Below are positions 3,987 through 25,479 of a stretch of DNA of 60,892 bases, piece by piece; position 1 is the first letter of the stretch; the number at the start of each line of letters is the position of its first letter. The stretch lies in IMG/VR virus record IMGVR_UViG_3300047160_014297, positions 1 to 60,892 of that record; one strand, written 5' to 3'. The notes beneath the pieces are model-generated. The model was not told the origin of the DNA and ran no database searches. It saw only the letters and a list, made by a program, of their open reading frames with translations. The stretch comes from a virus. The position numbers were made by a program, and so were the translations under genes.

Positions 3987-4386
3987 AAGAAAGAATCTAC
4001 CGGACGTGCTGGATTGTCTGGAAGATTCCAAGGATGACATGCAACGGGCGATCCGCTGTTTGGAACGTGCCCACCAGATCAAACTGATACTGGGTAGTGA
4101 ACGGGACAAACGAACAGGTAAACCCGAGTATGGCGACAAAAACTACGGGTTACTTGCGGAGCTGGAAGATCTGAAAGACGAGTTGAAAATGATTCAGGTC
4201 GCTAACGATTTGGAAGGGTTGAGGCACGGCCGGTTAGGGTCGGCCAGTATCGAGATGGACGGCAGACAGTATTTAGATCCGAAGTTGTTGATGGAAGCCG
4301 GAGTGACCGCCGCACAGATCGTCAAAGGGACCAAGCAAGGGGATAGCTATTATCAGACGACGCTATGGGAGATCAAGTCGGCCTAA
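3955..4386 (+). CDS. Hypothetical protein (charged, coiled-coil-like)
   Basis: 143-aa ORF and the last gene of the plus arm. Its stop overlaps the convergent stop of the tailspike gene. Confidence 0.6.
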   Translation: MAKSEPKPKTERKNLPDVLDCLEDSKDDMQRAIRCLERAHQIKLILGSERDKRTGKPEYGDKNYGLLAELEDLKDELKMIQVANDLEGLRHGRLGSASIEMDGRQYLDPKLLMEAGVTAAQIVKGTKQGDSYYQTTLWEIKSA

Positions 4387-6461
4387 CGAACCCGCCGTGC
4401 GCGGATCTGACCGTACGCTTTCAGGAAACTGATCGTGAAATTGCCCTGAGCCACCAAGTATGCCGTGAACGGTCCAGCCGTGTTGATACGCAAGATCGGA
4501 GTTGGTATAGCTGGATCGGTCAACCCACCAGGAACGACGGCCGGGGTCTCGATGATGGCGACTGAGTCCCGGCCGCCGATCACTGTCGATACTGTCGATA
4601 TCCCCACGATCAGAATGGTGTAGCTGGTTGATGGGTCAAAGTTGAAACTGGCAACACCGGACACGTCCCAATCGCCTGCCGTTAGAGAGATGCTGACCAC
4701 GTTGGCAGGGGTGCCGTTGGAAAGCGAGATGGCACTACCTAACGCGATCTGGGCCGAAACGTATTCGCCGACATCACCGGCTGCGGCGTTGCTGGCGTCA
4801 GTAATACCGGGGATTGAAGCGGTAAACCCGGTGGCTCCGAACGAGTTCATGAACTTGCGGATGTAGGGGCCGCTCGACGTGTTGCTGTAATCAGCCCCAG
4901 CGTTACCGTAACTGTGATTGTGGGCAACAAGGATCGTGCCGGTAGTGCCGGAAGTGCCAGTCAGGGCCAGACCGACCCAGTTGTTGTAGGTGATGTTGCC
5001 GGTGACAGTGCCGTGACTGGTAGTACCGGCCATCTCGATACCACTGGGGCCGGAACCCACAAGGGCTCCGACAACGGTGTTATTAGCAACAGTGAACCGT
5101 GTGGTGTTGGTGAGCAGAATCCCGTCACCGAGAGCCCCGGAGCCACGAGGCGTATCGACGAAGTTGTTCGTAATACGAATATCCGTGGACTGGCCGTCGG
5201 TAATACCCCGTGTTCCTGGACTATAGACCTGATTCGAGTCGATGGTGATTCCCGTAGAAAATCCACAAGCAATGCCTTGATTATTACCGTGATCCGATAT
5301 ATTGCCAATCACACTGACATTCGAAGACCCCGGCAGTATCTCGATAGATGCCACGCCCGGCGTGACCGAGTCGGCCGAATCATTGAAGCTGCGATTGTTG
5401 GATATTACAGATCTGGAAGCAAAGGATTCGATGCCGTCGATCGCGTTATGTTCGGTGTAATTGCCGTGAACCAGGATGTCCGTGGTGCCGGTGCCACAGA
5501 AGATACCGGACCAGCTCGCATGGGTGACCTTACAGTTGAGAATACTGATGTTGGCAGAGTCGTGGCCGGGGGAGATGCCGAACGTAGTGCTGCCTGCTCC
5601 AGTACCGGAATACGGCCCTTTCACGTACAGGTCACGGACAGTAACGCCGGTTGATGAGGGTGAAATAAAGACAACAGCGGAGGCCGAGCCGCCCCAATCT
5701 GGAGGGAATGGTAGATCAGATGGGGCGTGAATGGTGGAGTCCCAACCCGACCCGACCAGGGAAACACCCGATGGAACACGTAGGAAATTGGAGACTTTGT
5801 AGGTACCCGGTGGCATGTAGACGCGTGCACCTGTTACTGAGGCGTCGTTCAGGGCCGATTGGATCGCAAAGGTGTCGTCGGATGATCCGTCACCGTGGGC
5901 AAGGTACGGTACTGATCGGACATCCAGTTGGATCTGGGCTTCGTCGAATCCAGAAACAGCGGGTAGGGTGAAGGGTGATGTAATGCCAGTACCTGAGAAT
6001 TGAATATTGTACGCACCGTTGGGGGCGTAGAAGCCCCAGTTACCGAGGTTGTCCGCTGTAAAGGGGTTGGAGAGGGGAGTACCTTGATTGTCGGAATAGA
6101 TCTGGGCCAACGGTATACTGGAGGCCACGCCACCGGATGACGAGCCATTCGCGCCAGCCTGTGCCCAAACCAGTGAAGTGCCGGAGTAACTTCCTATAAC
6201 GAACGCACCGTTGAAGGAGGAGTCGGGGACGGCGGTAACGTTGACGGTCTGGCCGGTTGCGAACCCCAAACCGGACGGTACGGTTGCCGTTACGATACTG
6301 GATGATCGGGTAATTGCGGATATCGCTGCGGATATCGTGGTGGACGAGAACACAGTGACGGTGGCACCCGGAAAGGAACCTTGGACCAGAGTGGTAGATT
6401 GAAGTCCGGAGGTGTGGACTTTGGTGTTACCTTGCTGGGCGAAACCATAAATTCTCTGCAT
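4383..6461 (-). CDS. Tailspike or depolymerase with a pectate-lyase-3-type right-handed beta-helix
   Basis: The motif YLAHGDGSSDDTFAIQSALNDA...VYMPPGTYKV is a Pectate_lyase_3-type N-terminal signature. It is followed by many NxxxG-type beta-helix rungs. The gene sits at the terminal position of the late operon. Confidence 0.8.
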   Translation of the reverse strand: MQRIYGFAQQGNTKVHTSGLQSTTLVQGSFPGATVTVFSSTTISAAISAITRSSSIVTATVPSGLGFATGQTVNVTAVPDSSFNGAFVIGSYSGTSLVWAQAGANGSSSGGVASSIPLAQIYSDNQGTPLSNPFTADNLGNWGFYAPNGAYNIQFSGTGITSPFTLPAVSGFDEAQIQLDVRSVPYLAHGDGSSDDTFAIQSALNDASVTGARVYMPPGTYKVSNFLRVPSGVSLVGSGWDSTIHAPSDLPFPPDWGGSASAVVFISPSSTGVTVRDLYVKGPYSGTGAGSTTFGISPGHDSANISILNCKVTHASWSGIFCGTGTTDILVHGNYTEHNAIDGIESFASRSVISNNRSFNDSADSVTPGVASIEILPGSSNVSVIGNISDHGNNQGIACGFSTGITIDSNQVYSPGTRGITDGQSTDIRITNNFVDTPRGSGALGDGILLTNTTRFTVANNTVVGALVGSGPSGIEMAGTTSHGTVTGNITYNNWVGLALTGTSGTTGTILVAHNHSYGNAGADYSNTSSGPYIRKFMNSFGATGFTASIPGITDASNAAAGDVGEYVSAQIALGSAISLSNGTPANVVSISLTAGDWDVSGVASFNFDPSTSYTILIVGISTVSTVIGGRDSVAIIETPAVVPGGLTDPAIPTPILRINTAGPFTAYLVAQGNFTISFLKAYGQIRARRVR

Positions 6462-8056
6462 TACTTTGCCATCACAGTCCAGTTCGTACCGTCACAGTAA
6501 GCCAGGACATGATTGGTGCCCGAGCCGGTGATGACAGCGCCCCACGTATTGGTCATCGAATCGTTGACGGCACGCATGGACCCTTCGGTGCCGCCACCGC
6601 AACCGGGCAGGACTGAGAATGCTACCGCGGTCGACTGGACCATACCGTTAATGGAAAGGGTAGGGTTGGGACCTTGGTTGGCTCCGGTAAACATCGTGAT
6701 GCCGTCATTGGAACCATTGGCGGTAGGGGACAACTGCATGAATGCTTTGTCACCGGCAGCGACCGTGTTGCGGAGGACGCCGACTGTGGATTCCCAGTCG
6801 AGCCGGATTTTATTGGTGCCACTGGCAACGAGGTTCAACGTTGGTGTATTGACAAGAGTCGAGAACAGACCGTTGGTACCGTTGACCGTCGAGGTCGTCA
6901 AGTTGGCCGCGCCAGTTATCGATCCGAGATAGACGTCCGTAACTGAGACGTTGCCGATCACACAGGTATTTGAGGTGTGGGCCAGTGCCGATGTCCCTAA
7001 GATACAAGTGTTGGAAAGTTGGGTGGTTGAGTCCGCACCGGTACCAAACCCGACCCATGTATTGAATTGACCGGTCAGGTTGGCGTTAGCGGGTGTTGCC
7101 GTGATGCCAGAGTTCATGCCAACCAATGTGTTGAACGATGCCGTGGTGTTGAAGTAACCGGCACCAAACCCCAGGAATGTGTTGTCGTTGCCGGTGGTGT
7201 TGTTGTTACCGGCAGTTTGGCCGTCCGCTGTGTTTTGAGAGCCGGTGGAGTTCGTGACGAGACATTGGTCGCCGGTACAGGTGTTGTTATTGCCGGTCGT
7301 GGTCGAGACCAGAGCGGAGTGGCCGACACCGGTGTTGTTGGAACCGGACGTTAAGGTTCCGAGGGCAGCAGCACCGACCGCGGAGTTGTTGGAGGTGGAG
7401 TTGGCGTTCACGAGAGTGTGCCAGCCGATCGCGATGTTGTCGGTACCGTTGCCACCAGCTGAACCGAGGGTTTGAAGGGCCAGGGAGCCTAGTGCCGTGT
7501 TGCCGCCATTGTTGCCGATACCGTTACATGAGAAGTACCCGATACAGGTGTTCTCGGCCGAATTCACATTGTGCTGGAGGGCGTTGAAACCCATGGCGAC
7601 GTTGGCTAGGGACTGGTTCTGGGTCTGGGTGGACATGGCGCCGATACCAACAGCAGTGTCGGTGTTGTCGGATCGGATCAAGGCGGGGGCGACCCGGTCG
7701 GCCAGCGTGAAGGCGGATGGGATACCGGCTTGATCGAGCTGGACGTTGTAATGGGAGCCACCGGTGCCGTAGAAGAACCACTGGCCGGACGTGTTGGCGA
7801 AGAATGGGTTAGAGAGAGCAGTGCCTTGGTTGTCGGAGAAAACGGTCGCGACCGTGCCAGTACCGTAGTTGAAGACAGTGATGCGGCACGATGGGTAGGA
7901 AAGCTGGACACGGTTGGACGAACGGATGCCGGAGGTTATGGCTTGCTGGTTGCCGTTCTCACAGAACCCCGAGATTAGAGTGTAGATGGGAGTCTGGGAG
8001 TGAACCGTGGAAGTAAGAAGTAAAAGTGAGAATAAGGTTAAGAGTAATCGTTTCAT
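6461..8056 (-). CDS. Tail-fibre-like protein with a Sec-signal-like N-terminus and NT/NS-rich repeats
   Basis: N-terminus is MKRLLLTLFSLLLLTSTVHSQ. It shares the SDNQGT.LSNPF.A..G.W.FY module with the tailspike. The central region has repeats of the NTA.G..AL type. ATGA overlap with the downstream gene. Confidence 0.7.
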   Translation of the reverse strand: MKRLLLTLFSLLLLTSTVHSQTPIYTLISGFCENGNQQAITSGIRSSNRVQLSYPSCRITVFNYGTGTVATVFSDNQGTALSNPFFANTSGQWFFYGTGGSHYNVQLDQAGIPSAFTLADRVAPALIRSDNTDTAVGIGAMSTQTQNQSLANVAMGFNALQHNVNSAENTCIGYFSCNGIGNNGGNTALGSLALQTLGSAGGNGTDNIAIGWHTLVNANSTSNNSAVGAAALGTLTSGSNNTGVGHSALVSTTTGNNNTCTGDQCLVTNSTGSQNTADGQTAGNNNTTGNDNTFLGFGAGYFNTTASFNTLVGMNSGITATPANANLTGQFNTWVGFGTGADSTTQLSNTCILGTSALAHTSNTCVIGNVSVTDVYLGSITGAANLTTSTVNGTNGLFSTLVNTPTLNLVASGTNKIRLDWESTVGVLRNTVAAGDKAFMQLSPTANGSNDGITMFTGANQGPNPTLSINGMVQSTAVAFSVLPGCGGGTEGSMRAVNDSMTNTWGAVITGSGTNHVLAYCDGTNWTVMAK

Positions 8057-13424: not shown

Positions 13425-16400
13425 TTAGGCCGATTGACCGGCAAACGGTTTAAACGGCAAGTAAGGTCCGGTCGAGCCCCACTCCTTGGCATGGATTATA
13501 GTCTCGTCGTCAAACATCGAGAAGGCCGATGTCGAGGTCGCGCTGTAGTAGAACAACAGTCCTTTAAGGGCTGCGGTCGGCGCGTACACTTTGGTGATCT
13601 TGCCGCCGGAAGAGGGCAGCACAATCGTGTACGTCAGGCCCAGATCGGTCAGTATCGTGACGTTGACCGGAGAGGTCGAGATATAGACGAAGTAGCCGTC
13701 CCGGACGTGCCCGTAAGTGGTGAAGCCGTGACTGACGTAGTTGGGAGAGGATTTGTTGACGGCAAGATAGGGTTGCAGGACCGCGTTCGGTTCGAATTCG
13801 TAGAAGACCGGCGTCACCGTAGAGGCAACCTGTACCTGTAAGGCGATGTCAAGATACAAGGCAAGGTTGGTCTGGATCACGTCCAGCGGATATTGCTGGC
13901 GGCCGGAACCGGAAATCACAGAGGAGCCCAGGGCGGTCTGGAGTTTATTGACGTAGGGTGTCAGAGTGGCCGACGTCCCTTGAAGATCGGCGTCGACCAT
14001 GTAATCCAGAAAGAGCTTCTGGAGACGTGGATCGCCCAGGTCGAAGGAGGAGGTGGTGAAGTCCGCAAAAATCAGGCCACCGTTATCCGAGGAGCCCTGA
14101 CCGAGCAATTGAACGGTGCCGTCCAGTCCACCGGCAAGGACCGAGGTCAGATTTTGTCCTTCCTCTTCGTAGATAAACGAAGCGGCCGGAGCGTAGTGAA
14201 GAGGGAACCAGCCCGGAGCCAGTAGTGAACGATCGTACATCATGCATTGGTAGGCGGCATGTGTGTCTTGATAGATGAAGTAGAGACGCGATTTGGTCGG
14301 GCAGACCCGCAAGGAGTTGGGCTGGGTAAAGTCCACCGGGTTGTATCCGTTGACGGCAGAACCGACTTGACCGGCATGCGGGAACAGCGGGTAGAGCGAG
14401 TCGTCCGTTAAAGAGTCTAGAGCGCCGCCACCGAGTTGCTGAATCCCCGACTTGGTGACGGCCCAGATCGAGTCCTGACTGGCATACCCGTAAGTGGGGA
14501 AGAGTCCCTTGCCGTTGGGGACTTCTTGGGCCGCGTAGGTCAGGACGGTGTTGCCTTTGGCGTCTGGACTGGTGGTGGGGTAGCAGGAGAACAGCCGTTC
14601 AGTGGACCACACGTAGCAGCGGCCGTCAAACATACAACCGTTTTGGAGGGGTTCGGAAGGGGAGGTTATTTCGAGTTCGTTGGCGTCACTGGCGGAGTCC
14701 GGGTCCGAAGGGTTGGACCACCGTAGGATACCGTCCAAACCCGAACGTATCGCAAACAGAACGTTCGTGAGAGGGTCGGGTCCCCACATCGCCGGTAAGG
14801 GGGTGCCACCGATCGTTGCTTCTGGGATAAGGAAGGTTGCTGCGGTTTGGGTGCCGCCATTTTCACGGAGTTCCAGACGTGTGGTGGAGGCCGGAGGACC
14901 GTACAGCGTGTAGGGTGTACCGTTGATGAAGACTTGGGCACCTTGTTGCCAGTTGACGTTAAAGGTATCGCCCGATACCCAAGAGACTGAAGTACCGGCT
15001 ACGTTCAGAGTGCCAGTCCGTGGTATATCGGTAACCGGAAACGGTTGGAACAGATCGAAACGGAGGATTTCGTTGACTTTGATCGCGGCGTCGGTGACAT
15101 CGAGGTTGAACGGGGTTGCCGTGTTAGGGACGGTTGCGGATAAATGCGCGTCATCGGTGAGAGTGCCACCGATCGTGAAGTAATTGATCTTGTCGACCTG
15201 GGGGTCGGTGGAGACTGTGGGGGTAACAACGAGTCGTTCACGTTGAAGGTCGATGGGTGAACGTAGAGCCGGTGACGGGTTGGAGCGGGCGCCGGTTGAT
15301 GAGGACCGGTACCGATAATAGAGGGAATAGGGTTGCTCCCCTTGAGAGTCCATGCCGTAGGTGCCGCCGATCCACCAACTCGAAACAAGGAAGACAGTGG
15401 AAGCGGTAACTTGTACCTGGACGATCAGGCCCGTCACTTTCGCCAGGGTCACGACCTGGGAGGAGCCAATCGGAGAGAGTTCTGATACGTGGAAGTTCAG
15501 TTCGGTCCAGGCAGACGTTCCGGTTGAAGTGTAGTCCTGCACGGGAGTGGACGAGGGGTCGGTAATCAAGCCGCCTGTAGGGTCACCCGCAGTGATGTCG
15601 GCCGGTAATGTCTGGCTGCGGTTGGCCGGAACGTTCGATGTCTGGGCGGTCTGGTTGATGACGCCTTGCTGGATGGCGGTCTGTTGGGCCGCGAATGCGG
15701 TGGCCGACGAATTGACGACGGATTGGAATACGGTCGGCCCGACATCCTTGTAGTAGCCATTGAGGATTTTCGAGAAGTCCGCCGGGAATGCCGGGTCGGT
15801 TAGAAGGTAGATGCGGATGTTGACGACGTTGGCCGGGTTATCCACTTGAAGGGAAATGTGGATGTAGTCCTCCGGTTGGATGGGACGCGATGTGCCGGAA
15901 CCTGTACCGTTCGGGTAGGCCAACGCTTCGTTTAAGGGGGCGCCCGATTTGTCCAAGGACAAGTAACCGATGCCGGTCGTCACTGTCGATTGGAACGAGT
16001 TGCCGGTCAAGGTGTTGGTAGCCGTGAACGCGCCGACCGTGTAGACACGGAATGAGGCAATGCCCGTAACCGCGTTACCGGCCGCGCGGGTACCTGTAGT
16101 GGAGCAACGGATAGAAACGGTACCGTCCGGTGCGGTTGCAACAGACAAGACACGAATGTATTCCGCTGCAGCGATCTGGAGCATCGCGTCCGGCTGGATA
16201 CCGGTGGTCTGGTCGGCCAGAACGATCGAGCAGAGACCGGTTGAGCCGGTATCGTACAGGATCGAGCCGATGGTGGTGGAGGTGATCGGTTCGAAGACTT
16301 GGCGGATTTTACAGACTTCGGTGCCATTAAAGATGATGAGGGCGCCGGGCTGGTAATTGAAGTCCGCCGCAGTCGGAGCAACCGATGCCCAGCCGGTCGA

Positions 16401-17003
16401 GCCCGAGTCGTACAGGATCGCAAGAATGGTGGTGTTGAAACGGGCCGGGTTCGTGATCGCACCAGCGGTATTGGGGACAGTACCGGCCGTATGAGACCAG
16501 GAGCCAGTTGAAGTGAACTGTTCGATGATGTTGAACTGAGGCACACCGCGGGCCAAGACAGGCGGGGCGGTCGGTGGAGCGATGCCGATCGGGTAATTGG
16601 TCCGGTCGGTACGGACTTTACGGGAGCGCTGGCCGTCGGAAATGTACATCCAGGGACGTGGCGTTTGATTGGGGCGGAATGGGACCATCGAGAGGGGAGT
16701 GCCGGAGTAACCGGTGTCGATCGGGGTCACCAAGGTGGTGTCGTACAGGGAGGTACCGGCACCGATCAAGCGAGAGAAGGTAGCGTTGGTCGGGTCGTTC
16801 AGTCGGCGGATGGAATGGATCGGTAAGCCCGAGCCGGTATCGAATAACTGAGTGAGACCGGAGCGGGGCTGCAATCCACCGAGCTGGCGGGCCGTAAAGT
16901 TGTTTAGCTTTGAGTAATACCCTTCCGGCAGGAGGTCCGGCGGGTAACGGAGACTCAAGCCACGGCATACCAGTTTGTAGGGGACACGTTTGTAGTTGGG
17001 CAT
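13425..17003 (-). CDS. Very large tail structural protein (nozzle or tail-tubular-B-like by position only)
   Basis: 1192-aa uninterrupted ORF in the tail module. No motif was recognised, so the function is inferred from size and position. Confidence 0.7.
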   Translation of the reverse strand: MPNYKRVPYKLVCRGLSLRYPPDLLPEGYYSKLNNFTARQLGGLQPRSGLTQLFDTGSGLPIHSIRRLNDPTNATFSRLIGAGTSLYDTTLVTPIDTGYSGTPLSMVPFRPNQTPRPWMYISDGQRSRKVRTDRTNYPIGIAPPTAPPVLARGVPQFNIIEQFTSTGSWSHTAGTVPNTAGAITNPARFNTTILAILYDSGSTGWASVAPTAADFNYQPGALIIFNGTEVCKIRQVFEPITSTTIGSILYDTGSTGLCSIVLADQTTGIQPDAMLQIAAAEYIRVLSVATAPDGTVSIRCSTTGTRAAGNAVTGIASFRVYTVGAFTATNTLTGNSFQSTVTTGIGYLSLDKSGAPLNEALAYPNGTGSGTSRPIQPEDYIHISLQVDNPANVVNIRIYLLTDPAFPADFSKILNGYYKDVGPTVFQSVVNSSATAFAAQQTAIQQGVINQTAQTSNVPANRSQTLPADITAGDPTGGLITDPSSTPVQDYTSTGTSAWTELNFHVSELSPIGSSQVVTLAKVTGLIVQVQVTASTVFLVSSWWIGGTYGMDSQGEQPYSLYYRYRSSSTGARSNPSPALRSPIDLQRERLVVTPTVSTDPQVDKINYFTIGGTLTDDAHLSATVPNTATPFNLDVTDAAIKVNEILRFDLFQPFPVTDIPRTGTLNVAGTSVSWVSGDTFNVNWQQGAQVFINGTPYTLYGPPASTTRLELRENGGTQTAATFLIPEATIGGTPLPAMWGPDPLTNVLFAIRSGLDGILRWSNPSDPDSASDANELEITSPSEPLQNGCMFDGRCYVWSTERLFSCYPTTSPDAKGNTVLTYAAQEVPNGKGLFPTYGYASQDSIWAVTKSGIQQLGGGALDSLTDDSLYPLFPHAGQVGSAVNGYNPVDFTQPNSLRVCPTKSRLYFIYQDTHAAYQCMMYDRSLLAPGWFPLHYAPAASFIYEEEGQNLTSVLAGGLDGTVQLLGQGSSDNGGLIFADFTTSSFDLGDPRLQKLFLDYMVDADLQGTSATLTPYVNKLQTALGSSVISGSGRQQYPLDVIQTNLALYLDIALQVQVASTVTPVFYEFEPNAVLQPYLAVNKSSPNYVSHGFTTYGHVRDGYFVYISTSPVNVTILTDLGLTYTIVLPSSGGKITKVYAPTAALKGLLFYYSATSTSAFSMFDDETIIHAKEWGSTGPYLPFKPFAGQSA

Positions 17004-17015
17004 AGGGCGGCGCCG

Positions 17016-20000
17016 TCACTTGTGAAGGATGAAGATGGTGCCGCGGTGGGACGGCTGTGCCGGGGCCGGAGTGATGTCAAACAGGTTCGAGACCGCGTTA
17101 CTGGCACCCGAGGCCGACGCCGTGAAGTTGCAACCGCTACCGGAGGCCGATGTGCCGACCGTGGAGAACACCTTGACACCGGCCGTGGCCGAGCCGGACG
17201 TGTTGGTGAACCCCGCGCCGCAGCCGTTGGCGGTCAAGGTGACGGTGCCACTGAATGTGTTGTCGGAATCGGTGACCGTAAAGGATGCCATGGTCATGCC
17301 GCTGACGGTCGTGGCCGGTTGAACCGTGAACGAGAGGGCGGCACCAACATTGAATGTGTTGGAAGTAGTGTTGTCGGCACCCGAGGCGGACGCGACGAAG
17401 GTACAGTTGGAACCCGAGCCGGTCATGTTCATGATCGAGAAGGTCGCCACACCAGCCGTATTGGGTTGAGTGTTGTTGGTGGCACTGACGCCGGGACAGC
17501 TCGTGACGGTGAGCGTGGTATTGCCGGTGAAGGTAGCGTCGGGATAGGTGACCTTGACGGTCGCCATTGTTGAGCCCGAGCCGGTATTGGACGGTTGGAT
17601 CGTGAAGACCAAGGGACCGCATCCGCCAGCCAGACGCACCATTCCCTTCGGCACACATTGATCGGCCACGTGAATATGGGTTTCCCAACCTGCTGGCAAG
17701 TCGGATAATGGATACACTTCGCATGTGTTGGTGGGCGCGTCGGTGACTCCACCTCCATTACGGCAGGGAACCGAATTGGCTGTCGCCCATGTAAAGAACG
17801 GGTTGGCGATACCGGCAACCGAGTAGGCTTCATCGCCTTCACGCTCGACGATTTCAAAGCATGGCGTGCCACAGGTGTCGGAAAAATAAATGCCGTAATG
17901 AGCCAGTGCGGTGATAAACGGTTTTTTCCATGATGGAATCGATAGTGCTGCGATTTGGGCGTCCGTATAGTCCAGGAAGAAAAGTTGCCCCTGGAACGGC
18001 CGATTCGTATTCGACACCATAACCGATGTGCATCCCAGAATACTGACCCGAGGTGATGGGAATACGTAGGAATTTGAGCCTAACGAATCGTTCACACAAT
18101 AACTATTTGTGATCAGAGCGTGCTGAATACTCCCAGCAACCACTTCGTGATGGCGTAGATCGGTTGACGCGAGTCGACTGTCAATACTGTAACCGTTGGG
18201 CTGGCCGTAATCGGGGGTGGAGAAAGCGCCAGGACTGCGGATGGTGGCAATCGCTGTGTCCAGAAATTGCAGGTCCAACGTGCAGCAGTTGGACATGTTG
18301 AAGTAACGTTTGTTGTAAAACGTGATGCCCTGCTCGTTGTTACCATGGAGACGGATATATTCGTTGTTGGTCTGGTCCCACAAATCAAAGAACGAGTCGC
18401 CGCCACAGCCGGGGTTCGTACAGGAAGTCAGGTAACTGAAGTGGGCACCGACCGGGATATGTGCGGTGAACCCGTTATGCATATCGCTGCCACAAGTGGT
18501 CCCAACCGCTTGGCAGTTGGTGAACGTCCACACCGGATCGGACGACTGACCGTAGAAGGTCGGGTTGGAGTTGTTGGCAGAGTTCGAATTGGGGTTATTG
18601 ACGTTCGGATTCGCCGTCGATGCCGACCCGACACTCTCCTTGAACACCTGAGACTGCCCGACCTCGCCCGTCAGTAAGGTCACCATTGCCGCCGAGTTCG
18701 CGATCAAGTGCCCCGTTGGACCGCCAGAACCGGCACCAGGAAGTTGAGTCGTGTAGAGGCCCCCGGGATAGGGCATGCAGGTGGATGGCTCCTGAGACGA
18801 GATCGTGAACGGGCCTGCACATGGATTTTGGACGGTCAGCGGATGCGGATAGGTGTAGGGGGTGTAACTCAGCGTCCAGGTGTTTGTGGAGGTGCACAGG
18901 TACAGATTGCCATTGCCGAATCCATTACCGCTCGTATTCCAGCTTCCTTCATCGGTGGCAAAATAACCAACGCCTGTAGTACATGCCGCAGGACGTCGGG
19001 CCTTTGTTCCGAAGCCATTTCCAGATGTTCCGTCGAATGGAGAACTCGAAGTCGTCTGCGCTGACTGTCCTAGCGTATCTACATAAAAATCTCTGTTCGC
19101 AATGATCCGCTTAGAACTTGCCTGTAGATAATAATAGATAGGACTGCCGCCGATGACAGCATTGTTCCAAGCGTAACTCGGTGAAGCAGCCTGAGCGGAT
19201 GAAGAGAGTGGGGTGGCGCTGTTACCGCCATTCGCCCCGGTATAGAGAAAGCCAGCACCACGGCCCATGCCTTGATCGACACATGCGCTTGCCCGTAATA
19301 TCTGGATCGAGTCTCCGTTGACTGGTGTCCAATCTCCCGGCCCTCCGCTTCCCACGTTTATGACAAGCGTATTCGCGGTGTTCGATATAATTTCCGTCCC
19401 GTCATTCAACGTCACATCATGCATGGAGTATGGCGCACCAGCCGGTATCCATTGGTTTGTTGTCCAGCCTGGACTTCCGGTAACCGTTACAGTCACCGCT
19501 GGATAGACTCCGGTGACTGTGCTGATTGTCCCGGAGTAATAAGTCACACCATCATTGGTGTCATATACGCTAGCACCGTCACACGCACCCCATCCGCCGA
19601 TGCTGGCATTGGTTCGTGGCGTGGTCACGCTAAAGAGTCCGTCTATGTTTGCGCCTGACGCGGATATATCGGCAGTGTTCCCAAACATCAGACCAGTACC
19701 ACTTCTACCACCGAGCAATCCTCCAGCAGACTCGGTGCTAGCCGCTACGGTAAACGTGTTGCCGTACTGCTCAAAAGCTCTCGCCCCGCGGGGGCGGCCA
19801 TTGGATTCTGTCCCGTGCCAGGCAAGGGCAGAATTCAAATGATCCATATTCGTGAACTTATTAAACCTCTGAACGATCCTGCCGCCGCCTTCTTCGGTTT
19901 GCTGACCGCTGACGCTGCCTTCATTGTCACAACAACCGGCTGCATTGAATGTATTGTTTTCAAAGAAGATGAAGTTAGCTGAGCCGTAATTTTCAGACTG

Positions 20001-20648
20001 TGCCCAGCTATTATCACCCCACTGTCCCACACCCAAATAACTGGAATGAGAAAACTCAATCAGCGCCAGATACGTGCATCCTGTGCCCGCGATGTTGTTG
20101 TGATCGAAAACCCCGAACATGTTGTCGATCACGCCGATCCCATAAGAAATATATGAAGTGGTGTGGCCGCACCAATTAGAGAATGTAATGTTGTCCATCC
20201 TCATGTTGGGGCATCCGCTAGATGTGCAAGTCCCCCAAAAGGAAAATCCTACCGAGGCACCGCTTCCGTAGGTGAGTGTCAAGCACGATAGGCGCGAGGT
20301 CGAATTACCATATTGAGGCCGCATATCAAAGGCGAGAATGCCAGTAATTGTCAGCGTCGTACCACCGCTACTACAAGAGGATGCTGGCAGGAAAGTACTC
20401 GTGCTGCTACTTGCCGTACCAGCGCCTTGAATTGTAATTCCAATATTTGAAGGGACGGTAATACCTGATGAATTCCATGTGCATGAACCTGCGGGAATTA
20501 TGATAACGTCCCCGTCCACTGCTGTGTGCGTCGGGCCGTTAATCACAGCATTGACGTCACTTTGATTACATGAAGCCGCTGTATAGGTTCCGGCAAAGAG
20601 GGACGTCGGCGCGAGGACGAGAATAGTGAAAATCAATCGGCGGATCAA
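17016..20648 (-). CDS. Secreted-type beta-helix polysaccharide-degrading-like protein with two C-terminal Ig-like repeats
   Basis: TTG start overlaps the upstream TGA. The N-terminus MIRRLIFTILVLAPTSLFAG is signal-peptide-like. The motif AASCNQSDVNAVINGP...DGDVIIIPAGSCTW is typical of secreted parallel beta-helix enzymes. There is a tandem repeat of about 90 aa at the C-terminus. Confidence 0.75.
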   Translation of the reverse strand: MIRRLIFTILVLAPTSLFAGTYTAASCNQSDVNAVINGPTHTAVDGDVIIIPAGSCTWNSSGITVPSNIGITIQGAGTASSSTSTFLPASSCSSGGTTLTITGILAFDMRPQYGNSTSRLSCLTLTYGSGASVGFSFWGTCTSSGCPNMRMDNITFSNWCGHTTSYISYGIGVIDNMFGVFDHNNIAGTGCTYLALIEFSHSSYLGVGQWGDNSWAQSENYGSANFIFFENNTFNAAGCCDNEGSVSGQQTEEGGGRIVQRFNKFTNMDHLNSALAWHGTESNGRPRGARAFEQYGNTFTVAASTESAGGLLGGRSGTGLMFGNTADISASGANIDGLFSVTTPRTNASIGGWGACDGASVYDTNDGVTYYSGTISTVTGVYPAVTVTVTGSPGWTTNQWIPAGAPYSMHDVTLNDGTEIISNTANTLVINVGSGGPGDWTPVNGDSIQILRASACVDQGMGRGAGFLYTGANGGNSATPLSSSAQAASPSYAWNNAVIGGSPIYYYLQASSKRIIANRDFYVDTLGQSAQTTSSSPFDGTSGNGFGTKARRPAACTTGVGYFATDEGSWNTSGNGFGNGNLYLCTSTNTWTLSYTPYTYPHPLTVQNPCAGPFTISSQEPSTCMPYPGGLYTTQLPGAGSGGPTGHLIANSAAMVTLLTGEVGQSQVFKESVGSASTANPNVNNPNSNSANNSNPTFYGQSSDPVWTFTNCQAVGTTCGSDMHNGFTAHIPVGAHFSYLTSCTNPGCGGDSFFDLWDQTNNEYIRLHGNNEQGITFYNKRYFNMSNCCTLDLQFLDTAIATIRSPGAFSTPDYGQPNGYSIDSRLASTDLRHHEVVAGSIQHALITNSYCVNDSLGSNSYVFPSPRVSILGCTSVMVSNTNRPFQGQLFFLDYTDAQIAALSIPSWKKPFITALAHYGIYFSDTCGTPCFEIVEREGDEAYSVAGIANPFFTWATANSVPCRNGGGVTDAPTNTCEVYPLSDLPAGWETHIHVADQCVPKGMVRLAGGCGPLVFTIQPSNTGSGSTMATVKVTYPDATFTGNTTLTVTSCPGVSATNNTQPNTAGVATFSIMNMTGSGSNCTFVASASGADNTTSNTFNVGAALSFTVQPATTVSGMTMASFTVTDSDNTFSGTVTLTANGCGAGFTNTSGSATAGVKVFSTVGTSASGSGCNFTASASGASNAVSNLFDITPAPAQPSHRGTIFILHK

Positions 20649-21346
20649 AACACACCCCCGCCTATCACAACGGCCTTATTGCTACTAGTTGCTGCCGCGA
20701 GAATGTGAAATCCATCTAGGATTGTAAAAGTGTTGCTTCCTGTCCATGAATGCGTGTTACTTGATCCTCCCAATGCATAACTTGCTGCCGCCAATCCACT
20801 CAGGTTATATAACTCCGTTTGACTCGTGGTCACCAAGCCAGCACCAGGGTTCATAATAAAAGCAACAGTCGCGTCTCCCACTGCCGAAGTCACCGCAAGG
20901 CTATATGGACTCGTTGATGGACCCGCCGAGCTATCATCGGCGGCCTTGCGGCACGTCACTTGATCCGTACCCGTAAAACTCACCAGACCCATAATTGGGG
21001 AATCTGCGTTCGTCCATGATGCCGAAATGGTTAGTGACGTACCCGCCGTTGGGGCGACGAGCAAAAATGTATCGATTCTTGTAGTGGCTCCGCCAAAACT
21101 AAATATCGATGTCATGGCCTGATTGGTTCCGGTGCTGTCCCAATGTATCGACGGAGAAGTCAGAGTGTTAAAGCCATGTAAGGTAACCAGCAGGCAACGA
21201 TTCGATCCTGAAATTGTCATTGTGGTCGTACAACTAGTGACCGAAGAACCACAATTGACACTGGTGGTGTGATCCAATGCCACAGCCGCCCACACCCCAA
21301 CTGGCCAGAGTCCGCACAGGAGAAGAACGAAAAGTGCGCGTCGCAT
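20645..21346 (-). CDS. Hypothetical protein with an N-terminal signal peptide
   Basis: Start is taken at ATG 21346, which overlaps the upstream stop as TAATG. N-terminus is MRRALFVLLLCGLWPVGVWAAVA. The protein is Ser/Thr-rich. Confidence 0.65.
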   Translation of the reverse strand: MRRALFVLLLCGLWPVGVWAAVALDHTTSVNCGSSVTSCTTTMTISGSNRCLLVTLHGFNTLTSPSIHWDSTGTNQAMTSIFSFGGATTRIDTFLLVAPTAGTSLTISASWTNADSPIMGLVSFTGTDQVTCRKAADDSSAGPSTSPYSLAVTSAVGDATVAFIMNPGAGLVTTSQTELYNLSGLAAASYALGGSSNTHSWTGSNTFTILDGFHILAAATSSNKAVVIGGGVF

Positions 21347-21858
21347 TAGAATTGATCCGCCCCACCGACAATCCGTAACTGGACTCCGGCTGACGTCTGG
21401 ACACAGAGATTGTCGGCATTGGTTGCTGTTTGAAACCATGATCCATTCCCGTAAGTTGGCCCGAGCACGTACCCGTGGATTGCCGTCGCGGAGGTACCAT
21501 CCAGAAGGTACGCCGGGGATATTGCCGTAAATGTCGTGACACAGTTGGTGCCGGTCCCGGTCCCGAACGTAACGGTGACACTCGATGCGCTGTCGTTGGA
21601 GAACTCGATGAACCGGACGTAGATTTTGGTAGCAGAGACACCCGCGATCAAGGTGGTCTTGCCGTTGGTGTTGGTGTCGTAGAGGATGTGGAGAGTGCCG
21701 CCGCGATCGGTGGCGGACATGACAGTGTCGGCATTGGCCGCGGTTTTGTTGGAGTTGGGCGGGACGTTGTTCTTGCCGATCGTGACAACAGCGGACTGAC
21801 CGAAGAGTAACGGTGCCAGTAGAAGTTCGAAGAGAACGAGTGTAAATGCTCGCTTCAT
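21346..21858 (-). CDS. Hypothetical protein with an N-terminal signal peptide
   Basis: Start is taken at ATG 21858 (GGTGAGGAA upstream). N-terminus is MKRAFTLVLFELLLAPLLFGQSA. Confidence 0.65.
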   Translation of the reverse strand: MKRAFTLVLFELLLAPLLFGQSAVVTIGKNNVPPNSNKTAANADTVMSATDRGGTLHILYDTNTNGKTTLIAGVSATKIYVRFIEFSNDSASSVTVTFGTGTGTNCVTTFTAISPAYLLDGTSATAIHGYVLGPTYGNGSWFQTATNADNLCVQTSAGVQLRIVGGADQF

Positions 21859-21868: not shown

Positions 21869-22459
21869 TCACCGGAGATAGACCGTGCCGTAGACCCATA
21901 AGACGTCACCGTTGGCAATCGTGCCGATGGTGATCAAGAGTTTGTCGGAGGCACCACCGTCGATGATACCGGAAGATAGTTCTCGGTAAAAGGTTCGAGA
22001 CATACCGAACGATGGTGAAGAGAAAGCTAGTTGAGAGCCCGAGGTGGGTGTGGTCGTGGGGTTGGCACCAACAAATACTGAGGGATTGTCAGGTGTTAAC
22101 GAGCTGGTGATCTGAGACTCGATACCAAGAGCGGTTAAGCGCCACGCCGCGCCGGGCGTGATCAGCACACCGTTACTTGTGGTTGCGACGTATTGTTGGC
22201 CGAACCCGATAGGGGCCGCCCCGCCAACGACGCTTACCGGTAACGGGTTGGTGGATTGAATGAGGTTGCCGGACGCATCGTAGAGTTGGAATGGGGCACA
22301 AATTAACGGTGAGCCGTACCCGACCAGTTTCTCGGCAGACGAGGTGCCGACGTCCCACTTAATGGCCTGTCGGGCCTTGCCGTCCCCGATATCGACACAC
22401 CGGACGCTCTTACCGAGGGGTGCTATTGGAGTATTGAGTATGACATCATCATCAGCCAT
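21869..22459 (-). CDS. Hypothetical virion protein
   Basis: 196-aa ORF that overlaps the upstream gene by 8 nt. Confidence 0.7.
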   Translation of the reverse strand: MADDDVILNTPIAPLGKSVRCVDIGDGKARQAIKWDVGTSSAEKLVGYGSPLICAPFQLYDASGNLIQSTNPLPVSVVGGAAPIGFGQQYVATTSNGVLITPGAAWRLTALGIESQITSSLTPDNPSVFVGANPTTTPTSGSQLAFSSPSFGMSRTFYRELSSGIIDGGASDKLLITIGTIANGDVLWVYGTVYLR

Positions 22460-23921
22460 TGATATTCACCGGTGCGCCCGTTGGAGTACCTGACGATGGA
22501 TCGACCCTGGGCACTTGGAAGTTCTGGCGCGTTGCCGGTTCTTCCAGTAAAAGTTTGTAGACGATGTTGGCGGAGAGCTTGCCGTTGATCAGGGCCGCCA
22601 TACGCAGGAAGTTGTCGCGCAACTGATAGGTGGACTGGAATTCGGTGCCTGCCATTTTAATGGAGACGATGTGTTGGGCCAAGTCGAGGACCGGTTCAAG
22701 AAGGTCGGGGGTGATCGGGAGGACAGAACCGGTCGAGATCGGTACGGGAATCGAGCGTACCAGATCGAAAGTCACAACGTAGGTGTTGTCGGGAGTTGGA
22801 GAGACCGCGATCAGGTTCGGCGAGACCTGGATGATGTCGCGAGGGACAGCCGGGGTACGGTTCTGCCAACTGGTTTTGTAGCGATCCGCGTCGTTGATCG
22901 AGTGAATAGGGGTTTCGATGTCGCCGATCCGCCCCAGCATGATGGAGACAGAGGTGCGGGCCAGCGAGACAGCGAAGTTGTAGAGTTGGCGGCAATATTG
23001 AGCACGGGCCGGATCGGAGGCCGGGCCGTCTTCGCTCAAGAGGTCCGCCAGGGCTTGGTACTTGACGCCCCAGGCGAAATCGTCCGGGACACCGATCGGG
23101 ACCGGGGATGATGGGTTACAGGGTAGGTCCGGTCCGGTGTTGACCGAACAGAGGTCCAGGGCACCCATGTTCGAGGGAGGTGGAATGAGCTGGACCGACG
23201 TGATGGGAGACACGGCCACAGAGTAAGAAAAGGGGAATCCGGGAGTTTGGGGCCAGGATTGCCGGTACAGCGCGGCGCGTTCATCGGTGCGGACCAACCC
23301 GTAGGACAGACAGGACCCCGCGTCCATCCAGCCAAGACGGCGGACATCAAGGAGTGACGGAAAGAGATGGACCCGGCCGTTGGCAGGCATGCCCAGGAAC
23401 GGGATGGAGTGAACAACGTAGATACCGGAATCGGATAGAAACTGGTCGCGAGCCCGCTGGATGGACCGGGCGATCGACTGGACGGAAAACTGGAGCGTGC
23501 CGGTCCACGGGTTCGTCGGGGGTTCCAGTAAGTGGTTCTGGATTTCGTAGAGAAGTTGGGTGTCGGTTACCGAGAACGCGTAGGGGTAACCGGTGGTTGG
23601 CGTGTCGAGATCAGTACGGAGATCGTAGAAGGCGACACCGTCCAGGACGTGGAGCGAGGCGCGTTCCCGGTAGAACCCGGTCGTGGCTTGCAACATTCGC
23701 AACGACTGGTTGATGCCGTTGAAGAGTTCGGTCTGGGAGTAGTAGACATTGGTCGGGTCACTGAGGGATTCGGCCAGTTGAGCGATGGCCGATGCCATGG
23801 TCGTGGTTTCTCCGAACGGGATGTTGAGGGCAGGTAGACAAGATACGGACGGAGGTGGTGTTGGTCCTGTCGGACCCAGCAACATGTCGAGTTGGAGAGC
23901 AAGTAACATCGGCCAGTTCAA
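22452..23921 (-). CDS. Virion structural protein (adaptor or tail-tubular candidate by position)
   Basis: 489-aa ORF downstream of the capsid genes. Confidence 0.7.
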   Translation of the reverse strand: MNWPMLLALQLDMLLGPTGPTPPPSVSCLPALNIPFGETTTMASAIAQLAESLSDPTNVYYSQTELFNGINQSLRMLQATTGFYRERASLHVLDGVAFYDLRTDLDTPTTGYPYAFSVTDTQLLYEIQNHLLEPPTNPWTGTLQFSVQSIARSIQRARDQFLSDSGIYVVHSIPFLGMPANGRVHLFPSLLDVRRLGWMDAGSCLSYGLVRTDERAALYRQSWPQTPGFPFSYSVAVSPITSVQLIPPPSNMGALDLCSVNTGPDLPCNPSSPVPIGVPDDFAWGVKYQALADLLSEDGPASDPARAQYCRQLYNFAVSLARTSVSIMLGRIGDIETPIHSINDADRYKTSWQNRTPAVPRDIIQVSPNLIAVSPTPDNTYVVTFDLVRSIPVPISTGSVLPITPDLLEPVLDLAQHIVSIKMAGTEFQSTYQLRDNFLRMAALINGKLSANIVYKLLLEEPATRQNFQVPRVDPSSGTPTGAPVNING

Positions 23922-23934
23922 TCAACCTCAGTTC

Positions 23935-24147
23935 TTACATCTTGGGTCGGCCGGTCGGGTTCGGTGACGAAAGCTTCGCGGCATGCTTGGGGGCCGTGCC
24001 TTTCATCGTTTCGGTCATCCCGATCGACGGCATACGGAATGTGCGCTGTTGTTCGTAACCGTTCATCGGAGAACGGATGCCCTGTTCGACCGGTGAAACC
24101 GCACCTTTGATGGAACGGGCTGTGGGACGTTTGCCGTCACCTCTCAT
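23935..24147 (-). CDS. Small basic protein (70 aa)
   Basis: AGGAGG lies 6 nt upstream of the ATG. The protein starts MRGDGKRPT and contains SPMNGY, resembling the small basic ORFs at 25312..25479 and 29794..29919. A palindrome copy lies 37 nt upstream. Confidence 0.7.
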   Translation of the reverse strand: MRGDGKRPTARSIKGAVSPVEQGIRSPMNGYEQQRTFRMPSIGMTETMKGTAPKHAAKLSSPNPTGRPKM

Positions 24148-24184
24148 TTGAAACCTCCTGATAACTGGAAAATTGAAATTCCTA

Positions 24185-24197
24185 CGTAGAGTCTACG
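24185..24197. repeat. Palindrome copy CGTAGAGTCTACG (intergenic, 37 nt upstream of the ATG of 23935..24147)
   Basis: Read directly. Confidence 0.95.
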
Positions 24198-24211
24198 CGT
24201 TACTGGCGACA

Positions 24212-25255
24212 CTAGTCTAACCCTCCAACCAGCGAGGAGACATCATGATTTTGAAGGAACTGACCACCAAGCGGAAAGTCGAAGGTACCGCCTTGCTGGA
24301 AAGCGACAAGAGGGGAGATTTCGTCGTCCGCTTTGATGGCTTGGATCAACCGTTCTTTGAATTCTTGGCGGGCGTCGTTGATGGCGGAGACCCAGTTGGT
24401 TTGGGCCAATTCCGGGTAGACCGACACCATGCGGAGTGCCCACTGACATCCTAACTGGTAGGAGAGTAGCATGAGGAGGTCCGGTGAAAAGGTTGCCGGT
24501 ACGTCCAAGGTGTCGGAAAGGTCCAAGCCACGTTTCTGATACAAACACGAGTAGACCCGGTTGTTGACAGGGTGGGGGTACCATTCGTGGACCGGGACAC
24601 CCGAGACGACGTTGGGGGACAGCGGGTCGTTCTGGTAATTGGCGATGATGTAGGCGTCACCGGTCGCGCCACGGTAGGGGTCGATACCGTTTAACTGGGC
24701 CTGGGTGTAATAGAGTTTACGGCGGCGGATCGTGTAACCGGACGCTTGGTTGGTTACCGTAAAGTAACGCAGGAAATCGACAGGCCCGTTGGGGGTACCG
24801 TCGACGGCTGGGGGCTGATAGTACGCCTTGTACACCATGTAGGGTTGGCCCGAGCCGCCGGTTTCGGCGAAGACACGGTCCAGGGTGGCGGTATTGACAC
24901 CGTCCCACGCAATGATGGAGTAGAGAGCGCCGGGTGTGCCGGAGATTTGCGAGCCGATACGGAATTGGCGTCCTATACCGATGTCCGGGTTAGCGAGTGG
25001 GGGGTTCGATAGGGTTACAGCGTTCAGTGCGGTGGAGGCGTTACTATCGAATATCGCGACGTTGGAACCGAGTGCCGTGTTGACGGTACCTACCGAGATG
25101 TTGGCTGGGGCGGTGATGTAACCCGTCGAGACGAGCCACGACCAGAGTCGAAAGTCGCAGATGCGGTGCCACGCTCGGTTGACCAGTGTTTGGGCGTGTG
25201 CAGGTGGGAGACGAGGCACGGACTCTTGAAGGTCGTTCCAGTAGTCTCTAAACAT
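24212..25255 (-). CDS. Virion structural protein (head-tail joining candidate by position)
   Basis: 347-aa ORF. Confidence 0.7.
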   Translation of the reverse strand: MFRDYWNDLQESVPRLPPAHAQTLVNRAWHRICDFRLWSWLVSTGYITAPANISVGTVNTALGSNVAIFDSNASTALNAVTLSNPPLANPDIGIGRQFRIGSQISGTPGALYSIIAWDGVNTATLDRVFAETGGSGQPYMVYKAYYQPPAVDGTPNGPVDFLRYFTVTNQASGYTIRRRKLYYTQAQLNGIDPYRGATGDAYIIANYQNDPLSPNVVSGVPVHEWYPHPVNNRVYSCLYQKRGLDLSDTLDVPATFSPDLLMLLSYQLGCQWALRMVSVYPELAQTNWVSAINDARQEFKERLIQAIKADDEISPLVAFQQGGTFDFPLGGQFLQNHDVSSLVGGLD

Positions 25256-25311
25256 TGCTTCTGCACCAATAACTTACGTGCTCACGCCCGTGACCGCCGT
25301 ACCAAAAAATA

Positions 25312-25479
25312 CTAACGGCCCCGACCTTTGCGGCCATGAAACCGGGACCGATGGCGCGTACCCTTGCCGCCACGTCGAGGGACTTGCATGTAATTGGAAG
25401 GGTTTCGACCCTTCTTGCCACCTCGCATTGTGCCTCCTTTGAAGTAACGTAACTTCTGTGATGTCGTCAGTCGGGCCAT
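25312..25479 (-). CDS. Very basic 55-aa protein (Arg/Gly/Lys-rich), below the ORF-track cutoff
   Basis: Translation is MARLTTSQKLRYFKGGTMRGGKKGRNPSNYMQVPRRGGKGTRHRSRFHGRKGRGR. TAAGGAGG lies 5 nt upstream of ATG 25479. A second in-frame ATG at 25428 has AAAGGAGG upstream. Confidence 0.5.
   Translation of the reverse strand: MARLTTSQKLRYFKGGTMRGGKKGRNPSNYMQVPRRGGKGTRHRSRFHGRKGRGR

Follow-up and report, generated by a model that had tools for sequence, protein, structure and literature searches.

Signal-peptide-bearing proteins in the tail operon of a podovirus-like soil phage, one of them with a beta-helix domain related to genes of Acidobacteriota polysaccharide clusters

The IMG/VR virus record IMGVR_UViG_3300047160_014297 was analysed over its full length of 60,892 nucleotides, referred to below as the window. 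It belongs to a podovirus-like, virulent-looking phage from soil, the late genes of which form a long minus-strand operon. Inside this operon lie three consecutive genes, g1, g2 and g3, each of which opens with a predicted signal peptide. The largest product, that of g3, begins with a beta-helix domain whose cellular relatives belong almost exclusively to Acidobacteriota, mostly within gene clusters for polysaccharide synthesis. We propose, with a probability of roughly 0.55, that the three proteins are exported through the Sec translocon, fold in the periplasm, act as enzymes on the exopolysaccharide (EPS) of the host and are released at lysis. The three genes are as follows.

21858..21346, minus strand: g1, 170 amino acids (aa), N-terminus MKRAFTLVLFELLLAPLLFGQSA
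21346..20645, minus strand: g2, 233 aa, N-terminus MRRALFVLLLCGLWPVGVWAAVA
20648..17016, minus strand: g3, 1210 aa, TTG start codon, N-terminus MIRRLIFTILVLAPTSLFAG

The initial annotation had described three consecutive genes coupled by TAATG and TTGA overlaps, and both the overlaps and the coordinates were reproduced. One base is common to the stop codon of g1 and the start codon of g2 (...TTC TAATG CGA...), and the TTG start of g3 overlaps the TGA stop of g2 by four bases, TTGA (...GTG TTT TGA TCC...). The start of g1 lies 10 nucleotides (nt) past the stop of an upstream gene for a 196-aa protein and is preceded by GGTGAGGA, the TTG start of g3 is preceded by a Shine–Dalgarno-like GGGGG run, and 12 nt separate the end of g3 from the next gene. 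The public gene calls of the Joint Genome Institute (JGI) are shorter, with 191 aa for g2 (start at residue 43) and 1060 aa for g3 (start at residue 151). If these downstream starts were the true ones, the leaders of g2 and g3 would be untranslated read-through, an artefact that we consider highly improbable. The public starts drop the signal peptides together with 42 residues of g2 and 150 of g3 that align with conserved parts of their families, and the residues cut from g3 include beta-helix coils modelled with a predicted local distance difference test (pLDDT) score above 90. As the residues removed are conserved and confidently modelled, the upstream starts are taken to be right, and with them the length of 1210 aa given earlier for the third protein. 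In addition, the upstream starts yield exact stop–start overlaps, and the leaders that they include pass a rule satisfied by 0.4% of random positions. Leaders of this type may also be missed by automatic annotation in other cases.

The three leaders can be placed on the sequence as follows, where a slash marks a predicted cleavage site.

g1 residues 1–20, minus strand: signal peptide, cleavage probably at G20/Q21
g2 residues 1–20, minus strand: signal peptide, VWA/AVALD, attached to a family that is usually without one
20589..20648, minus strand: signal peptide of g3; AlphaFold2 gives an N-terminal helix at residues 2–12 and a confident fold from residue 21

Signal peptides were called with a rule of our own, which requires a net positive n-region, a stretch of 8–18 uncharged residues that average 1.9 or more on the Kyte–Doolittle scale, and small residues at positions −3 and −1. 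The N-termini of g1, g2 and g3 all satisfy this strict rule: in each, one or two basic residues are combined with a hydrophobic stretch free of charges and with small residues at the cleavage motif (LFG/Q in g1, VWA/A in g2, and LFA/G or FAG/T in g3). The background pass rate is 0.42% of internal positions in the window's own proteins. Four of the 30 long open reading frames (ORFs) in the window pass, namely g1, g2, g3 and the ORF at 6461-8056; by our own count, the probability that three of the four would be neighbours is approximately 0.03. Homology provides stronger evidence than this rule-based test. A signal peptide is present in all five relatives of g1; in 65 of 67 relatives of the first mature domain of g3 (domain A, described below), the mature N-terminus is the same, conserved one and is preceded within 28 aa by a strongly hydrophobic window of nine residues; and ten relatives of g2 have as their first residues MAVALD, or a slight variation of it, and this start falls exactly where g2 is predicted to be cleaved. 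The textbook signal peptides claimed in the initial annotation thus pass an explicit rule and are conserved across relatives. At 20 aa the leaders are short, and their hydrophobicity is strong; g2 and g3 both have RR followed by a hydrophobic pair (MRRALF and IRRLIF), and the RR is not conserved in relatives. Judging by these features, export by Sec is more likely than export by Tat. None of the three leaders contains a canonical lipobox, [LVI][ASTVI][GAS]C; g2 has LLLC, with Leu at −1.

Proteins that acquire disulfide bonds outside the cytoplasm typically have high, even numbers of cysteines. The g3 protein has 34 Cys residues (2.8%), mature g2 has four, mature g1 has two, both invariant, and the 531-aa protein encoded at 6461-8056 has ten. 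The leader-less proteins of the tail and head modules (4383-17003 and 21869-33465) contain 0–1% Cys, including a 692-aa tailspike with three, and the one leader-less exception is a 175-aa ORF at 27812-28339 with 2.3%. The same division is seen in the cultured phage Tunturi_1, in which the large signal-bearing proteins have 20, 10, 20 and 32 Cys residues and the other proteins 0–8. The high, even counts thus lend independent support to export of the three proteins.

The g3 protein is a chimera, in which two distinct secreted-protein families are fused and followed by Ig-like repeats.

18837..20588, minus strand: domain A (residues 21–604), right-handed parallel beta-helix from GTYTAASC to YTPYTYPHPL
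17616..18812, minus strand: domain B (residues 613–1011), second secreted-protein family with conserved Asp/Glu/His-x-His/Cys
17337..17612, minus strand: Ig-like repeat 1 (residues 1013–1104), 2 Cys
17064..17336, minus strand: Ig-like repeat 2 (residues 1105–1195), 2 Cys

Domain A has more than 140 relatives at E ≤ 1e-3, mostly proteins of about 700 aa, and a genome scan assigned nearly all of them to Acidobacteriota (Acidobacteriaceae, Bryobacterales and Acidiferrales). In these relatives, a leader precedes a conserved N-terminus of the GTYTAASC type, and the sequence finishes with YTPYTYPHPL; residues D182, D212, E230, R257, R261, H278 and R285 are invariant in the family. The AlphaFold2 model of domain A is a parallel beta-helix (pLDDT 88.8, predicted template-modelling score (pTM) 0.89). 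Foldseek matched it to the tailspikes of HK620 and K2-2 at the top of the list, and further matches were chondroitinase B, PL6 alginate lyases, RbmB, WceF and pectate lyase. The probability reached 0.99 for the PL6 lyase and chondroitinase B, and the template-modelling scores (TM-scores) of the matches were only 0.2–0.35. The model and these matches bear out the N-terminal signature of beta-helix polysaccharide enzymes that had been noticed in the third protein. A sequence search of the PDB with domain A and with the C-terminal half of g3 gave no match, and the CAZy-linked Pfam, Beta_helix and Pectate_lyase models did not match g3.

In cellular genomes, the domain-A gene lies inside Wzx/Wzy polysaccharide clusters and is usually divergent. 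Glycosyltransferase, flippase or Wzy neighbours are found within 6 kb at 43 of 53 cellular loci and at none of 18 viral loci; 39 of the cellular loci have at least three kinds of cluster neighbour, and 33 have a flippase or Wzy. At locus L053, which was checked with Pfam, the domain-A gene is surrounded by a flippase, two GT2 and three GT4 genes, a Wzy_C polymerase and a GH127-like gene. Such a location is characteristic of exported glycanases with a WceF-, PslG- or AlgL-like role, and the cellular relatives share it; the phage copy of domain A lies outside any polysaccharide cluster.

This genomic context bears on two alternatives in which export is accepted and the role differs. The proteins might be encoded by auxiliary metabolic genes, secreted enzymes that degrade plant or microbial polysaccharides in the environment and thereby feed the infected host, a role that has been put forward for soil-virus glycoside hydrolases. 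Soil viruses linked to Acidobacteriota do carry carbohydrate-active enzymes (PMC11924767; PMC13507307), and the Foldseek matches include pectate and alginate lyases. We nevertheless regard this role as quite unlikely: the cellular relatives are located in clusters for polysaccharide biosynthesis and not in utilisation loci, no CAZy-linked Pfam family is matched, and expression late in infection, just before lysis, would leave little time for a nutritional gain. Alternatively, the enzymes might destroy a receptor, trimming or masking a surface polysaccharide such that neither competitors nor the phage's own progeny adsorb to the cell or its debris. This possibility draws on the same evidence for export as the explanation that we favour, and domain A, derived from an enzyme of the host's polysaccharide cluster, would be expected to recognise the polymer of the host; the phage also encodes a GT2 glycosyltransferase related to those of the host clusters. 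Receptor destruction or superinfection exclusion is nonetheless unlikely in our estimation, as late expression coupled to virion genes would be poorly timed for it and lysogeny genes were not found in the window, and nothing at the sequence level separates it from a role in exit or spread.

Domain B has standalone relatives of about 410 aa, each with its own leader. Its model has a pLDDT of 78.9 and a pTM of 0.84, and a Foldseek search of the PDB gave no match to a solved structure; it does match predicted phage structures, including a minor tail protein of a Gordonia phage. The two Ig-like repeats anticipated at the C-terminus are 51% identical to each other (E = 2e-22). The same repeat occurs in up to 25 copies in giant proteins, and no Pfam model matches the g3 copies; they probably bind the cell surface or a glycan.

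The g1 protein belongs to a small orphan family with five relatives and the invariant motifs YDTNTNGKT and GSGTGTNC. In other viral contigs, its domain forms the C-terminal end of larger leader-bearing proteins that are encoded within runs of leader-bearing ORFs, and in the curated families only a sub-threshold match to GH85_C was obtained. In the family of g2, a leader was otherwise found only in P0125; relatives also occur in a phage-like contig and beside a Wzy-containing cluster, in both cases without room for a leader. Searches of Pfam, PHROG and NCBIfam with g1, g2 and g3 returned no family match. The g1 and g2 proteins can be described as putative small exported partners without an assigned activity.

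The composition of the region suggests how the cassette was assembled. By-eye inspection had indicated that the stretch at 19.0–21.4 kb is AT-richer, and this is confirmed by GC windows as well as by the GC content at third codon positions (GC3) and codon usage.

18800..21346, no strand: compositionally foreign block comprising g2 and domain A of g3, in which GC3 is low, GC skew is reversed and codon usage deviates

The GC content is 0.505–0.525 at 19–21 kb versus about 0.57 in the flanks, and GC3 is 0.47 in g2 and 0.52 in domain A of g3 versus 0.62–0.72 in the other late genes. The coding strand of the late genes is C-rich, and g2 has a codon distance of 0.30. The composition of g1, domain B and the Ig-like repeats looks native. 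On the strength of the deviant GC3, skew and codon usage, the block at approximately 18.8–21.35 kb is a later arrival, and g3 is a fusion. In the viral contig L089, from the same phage lineage, a leader close to that of g3 (MIRRLISALLF..., compared with MIRRLIFTILV... in g3) leads straight into domain B, after which come many Ig repeats, and this combination of leader, domain B and Ig repeats is likely to be the ancestral architecture. Across the window as a whole, the plus strand is G-rich nearly throughout, regardless of gene orientation, and the cumulative GC skew rises almost monotonically; it has a plateau at about 37–45 kb, and its only clear dip, at 19–21 kb, coincides with the foreign block.

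Two of the explanations offered in the initial annotation can be judged from these data. The idea of a moron-like cassette taken from a host secretome holds in part, in that domain A belongs to a family of Acidobacteriota and that g2 and domain A form a foreign block; the recommended search for homologues among secreted host proteins did find this family, leader-bearing, in the polysaccharide clusters. It does not hold for a classical moron: there is no sign of a dedicated promoter or terminator, no integrase was found, and g1 looks native in composition and is syntenic with its upstream neighbour in another contig, L006. Promoter-like sites number six versus 5.1 in shuffled sequence and terminator-like sites six versus 7.4, counted with a sigma-70 consensus that may not fit Acidobacteriota. 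The idea of an exported enzyme that acts on capsule or EPS is supported by the fold, the host-cluster context, the conserved signal peptide and the high, even Cys counts. The two explanations fit together, and their combination is supported by the data. The third one offered there, an unusual route of assembly, is possible.

The favoured explanation may be set out as a sequence of events. Owing to translational coupling in the tail operon, g1–g3 would be made along with the virion proteins. Their cleavable N-terminal signal peptides would direct them to the Sec translocon, and they would fold in the periplasm, probably with disulfide bonds, and would not be assembled into the particle in the cytoplasm. 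Domain A of g3, a module related to the signal-bearing, glycanase-like gene of Acidobacteriota Wzx/Wzy clusters, would then cleave an envelope polysaccharide of the host from the periplasm or the cell surface late in infection. Finally, lysis by holin and endolysin would release g1–g3 together with the virions, so that progeny would be freed from the slime layer and neighbouring cells would be stripped. The signal peptide may have been kept because the cytoplasm would not permit the folding of a Cys-rich enzyme adapted to the periplasm.

Several points weigh against this explanation. Tight translational coupling within a structural operon is what would be expected of virion components. The 531-aa signal-bearing protein and gp12 of Tunturi_1 share their first mature domain with the signal-less tailspike, which hints at a common docking function, and if all signal-bearing proteins are exported then the receptor-binding protein of Tunturi_1 is unaccounted for. 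A relative of g2 that has no signal is located in a structural-looking phage region (L003). The case for export is made from sequence. Given the low Foldseek TM-scores and the absence of a Pfam, NCBIfam or PHROG family for g3, a glycanase chemistry is suggested at the level of the modelled fold.

The surroundings of the cassette confirm the tail-module setting given for it earlier, with an SU10-type adaptor upstream and a homologue of Tunturi_1 gp31 downstream.

21869..22459, minus strand: gene for the 196-aa, signal-less protein, immediately ahead of g1 and conserved as a pair with it in L006
22452..23921, minus strand: tail adaptor (Pfam SU10_adaptor), homologue of Tunturi_1 gp30, upstream edge of the insertion site
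13425..17003, minus strand: 1192-aa core virion protein, homologue of Tunturi_1 gp31, downstream edge of the insertion site
6461..8056, minus strand: fourth signal-peptide protein, 531 aa, 10 Cys, in the tail module; overlaps the gene for the neighbouring tailspike by one base
4383..6461, minus strand: signal-less beta-helix tailspike, 692 aa (Pfam pectate-lyase-like and Beta_helix), likely virion spike
44173-44637, minus strand: phage lysozyme of the lysis cassette, without a signal or signal-arrest-release (SAR) sequence, apart from g1–g3
43929-44207, minus strand: 92-aa protein of the lysis cassette with a hydrophobic N-terminus, adjoining the lysozyme

Among cultured phages, the nearest relatives are the podoviruses Tunturi_1 and Tunturi_2, which infect Tunturiibacter psychrotolerans (Acidobacteriota) and whose morphology has been reported (PMC11924767). 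The relationship is distant: the homologues of the terminase, portal, capsid, gp11, adaptor (gp30) and gp31 of Tunturi_1 are 26–29% identical. The host of the present phage is probably a member of the Acidobacteriota (Terriglobia). In Tunturi_1, gp31 adjoins the adaptor directly, whereas in the window the 196-aa gene and g1–g3 lie in between. A viral scan with the 1192-aa neighbour as the query gave no match, and a tblastn search of 50,697 phage records with g3 gave no match in a cultured phage.

The cassette is not an isolated case, and similar runs of signal-peptide proteins recur across this phage lineage. In Tunturi_1 (PP887698; L078, 10371-23028), the consecutive proteins gp12, gp13, gp14, gp16 and gp17 all have signal-peptide-like N-termini; gp14 is annotated as a tail spike and gp17 as a virion structural protein, and no signal-less spike is evident in that genome. 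In L089, five leader-bearing proteins are encoded between the homologues of gp11 and the adaptor; a 245-aa protein of this contig resembles g2 only weakly (E = 0.07). L006 contains homologues of the 196-aa protein and of g1, followed by a different leader-bearing protein that matches Pfam Beta_helix. In the more distant L001, a relative of g3 lies ahead of the terminase among other leader-bearing proteins, and in an E217-like myovirus a relative of g3 lies between head and tail genes. Many further IMG/VR contigs with domain A have other large leader-bearing ORFs alongside. The position of the block varies, being between the adaptor and the gp31 homologue in the window and between the gp11 homologue and the adaptor in Tunturi_1 and L089. 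Two signal-bearing proteins of 420 and 256 aa, encoded upstream of the g3 relative in L001, were considered as distant homologues of g1 and g2, which neither BLASTP nor profile comparison supported; only the arrangement is alike. Beside the g3 relative of L001, an ORF at 8642-9205 (minus strand) encodes a protein that begins with a signal peptide and ends in a PEP-CTERM-like tail (..PLPEPASASSLLLFGLVLVICNRYRR); this resemblance was seen by eye and was not recognised by NCBIfam.

The recurrence of such blocks raises the possibility that the signal-bearing proteins are themselves spikes or receptor-binding proteins, either docked onto particles after export, at lysis, or using the N-terminus as an element of assembly or anchoring. 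The location in a tail operon and the translational coupling would be accounted for, as would the signal peptides on all of the large spike-like proteins of Tunturi_1, including the annotated tail spike. A domain of about 90 aa that follows the leader of the 531-aa protein is common to the signal-less tailspike at 4383-6461, gp12 of Tunturi_1 and a leader-bearing protein of L008, all of which were aligned, and L089 matches it by tblastn. The match of domain B to predicted structures of phage minor tail proteins points in the same direction. P22 tailspikes can be joined in vitro to spike-less particles, and docking after lysis is thus physically possible. On the other side, the g3 protein opens with an enzyme fold of the cellular type that is confident from residue 21, as in the cellular enzymes, which leaves no room for a particle-binding or docking domain, and the window already has a normal signal-less tailspike. 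The position and content of the block vary, and it lies away from the tail-fibre genes in L001 and in the E217-like myovirus. The AXA-type sites and the conserved even Cys counts argue for genuine export signals that are cleaved. We know of no precedent for an extracytoplasmic assembly step among tailed phages, which also counts against such spikes, and our literature searches yielded no account of a tailed phage whose tail or spike proteins carry signal peptides. On balance, a spike function is possible but doubtful. A specific form of it, in which the large spike-like proteins of the lineage would be exported, lose their signals, fold in the periplasm with disulfides and join tails when lysis mixes the compartments, seems rather unlikely. 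Were it correct, docking after export would constitute an extracytoplasmic step in the assembly of a tailed phage, the shared first mature domain would be a docking module and g1–g3 would form one interchangeable set of add-on spikes.

An identical 64-bp direct repeat is present at both ends of the record (1-64 and 60829-60892), which indicates that the genome is complete, assembled as a circle and 60,828 bp long. Prophage or host-flank contamination is ruled out by this terminal repeat, by the lack of host genes and by the lack of EPS-cluster neighbours at the 18 viral loci. Neither an integrase nor lysogeny genes were found in the window. The genome also encodes a family-A DNA polymerase in two parts with a uracil-DNA glycosylase (UDG) domain, helicases, ParB and ERCC4-type nuclease domains. 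The polymerase is split at 506-3501 (plus strand) into an ORF with the UDG domain and a 3′–5′ exonuclease and an adjacent ORF with the polymerase domain. A function of g1–g3 as a lysis cassette was rejected, since the lysozyme and the small membrane protein are found at 43.9–44.6 kb; the endolysin of that cassette has no export signal.

Further features of the window may be mentioned. A GT2 glycosyltransferase (41284-42306, minus strand) is encoded beside a TPR protein (39640-41076, minus strand) and is 30–43% identical to the GT2 neighbours of the domain-A gene in the EPS clusters of Acidobacteriota; with this similarity, the phage holds two genes with relatives in that type of host cluster. 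A 102-aa ORF among the early genes (59898-60206, plus strand) has a clear signal-peptide-like N-terminus, MKKVMLLVAGLLLLIATS/ADG, and no family match. Two ORFs of the head module have LAGLIDADG-like motifs, ..GFVDGEGTF.. at 30623-31177 and ..AYIDGEGAI.. at 27812-28339 (both minus strand). Pfam support is weak for the former (E = 0.009) and lacking for the latter; both may be homing endonucleases. The g1–g3 region was scanned for RNA families and tandem repeats, and neither was found.

The usual view of phage polysaccharide depolymerases is that they belong to the particle or are surplus cytoplasmic protein set free by lysis. If g1–g3 are exported, phages of this lineage would remodel the slime layer of the host from the inside, late in infection, with enzymes related to those of the host's own EPS clusters. 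This would bear on the escape and spread of phages in EPS-rich soil biofilms, on the evolution of host-range modules, as a host enzyme would have been captured together with its signal peptide, and on how viral carbohydrate-active genes are read in soil metagenomes. The analysis also defines three families without annotation, g1, g2 and domain B of g3, and a fourth, domain A, that marks EPS clusters of Acidobacteriota. As Tunturi_1 is in culture, membership of the particle and cleavage of the N-terminus are directly testable.

Compared with the tailspike depolymerases (HK620, the Klebsiella K2-2 tailspike and those of the P22 type), g3 has the same beta-helix fold, a location in a podovirus tail module and, as far as can be predicted, a polysaccharide target. 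Tailspikes, however, have a particle-binding N-terminal domain and no signal peptide and fold in the cytoplasm, whereas the enzyme fold of g3 comes straight after a signal peptide and the protein is Cys-rich. The neighbouring 692-aa protein conforms to the tailspike pattern of a particle-binding N-terminal domain without an export signal, and g3 does not. The gp12–gp17 region of Tunturi_1 resembles the cassette as a run of five signal-bearing proteins in a structural region, four of which are large and Cys-rich with even counts. The block lies elsewhere in that genome, and only the N-terminal domain of gp12 matches the window, in the 531-aa protein and not in g1–g3. The report on the Tunturi phages mentions neither signal peptides nor virion proteomics (PMC11924767).

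Export of phage enzymes before lysis is known from Sec-exported and SAR endolysins, for example Lys44 of the Oenococcus phage fOg44 (reviewed in PMC6116005). These endolysins attack peptidoglycan and are encoded in the lysis cassette, whereas the lysis cassette of the present phage is located elsewhere and its lysozyme has no signal. Among the carbohydrate-active enzymes of prophages, about 5% carry signal peptides (PMC13507307); these phage-borne, host-derived polysaccharide enzymes were catalogued one gene at a time by means of known CAZy families, in contrast to a coupled three-gene cassette in a virulent-looking phage without a Pfam or CAZy-linked match. A different parallel is offered by the morons of lambda. 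The lom and bor genes encode signal-bearing envelope proteins among late or tail genes, are foreign in composition and are variably present, and morons of the classical type come with a promoter and a terminator of their own and are expressed in the prophage state. The foreign composition of g2 and domain A and the varying presence of the genes among relatives are shared with lom and bor; the coupling of g1–g3 to the operon, with no sign of a promoter or terminator of their own and no lysogeny genes found, is not.

The nearest functional counterpart of the cellular domain-A family is WceF of Pantoea stewartii, a Tat-exported, tailspike-like beta-helix glycanase that is encoded in the stewartan cluster and acts on the polymer of its own cell (PMC7949094). 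Both are parallel beta-helices, and the cellular relatives of domain A are likewise encoded in Wzy-type EPS clusters with an N-terminal export signal. WceF is cellular and has a Tat signal, whereas g3 is encoded in a phage late operon, has two extra modules and shows no sequence similarity to WceF and a low TM-score. What seems to be new in comparison with all of these systems is the combination found here, a translationally coupled cassette of putative enzymes with predicted Sec leaders in a podovirus tail operon, related in part to genes of host EPS clusters.

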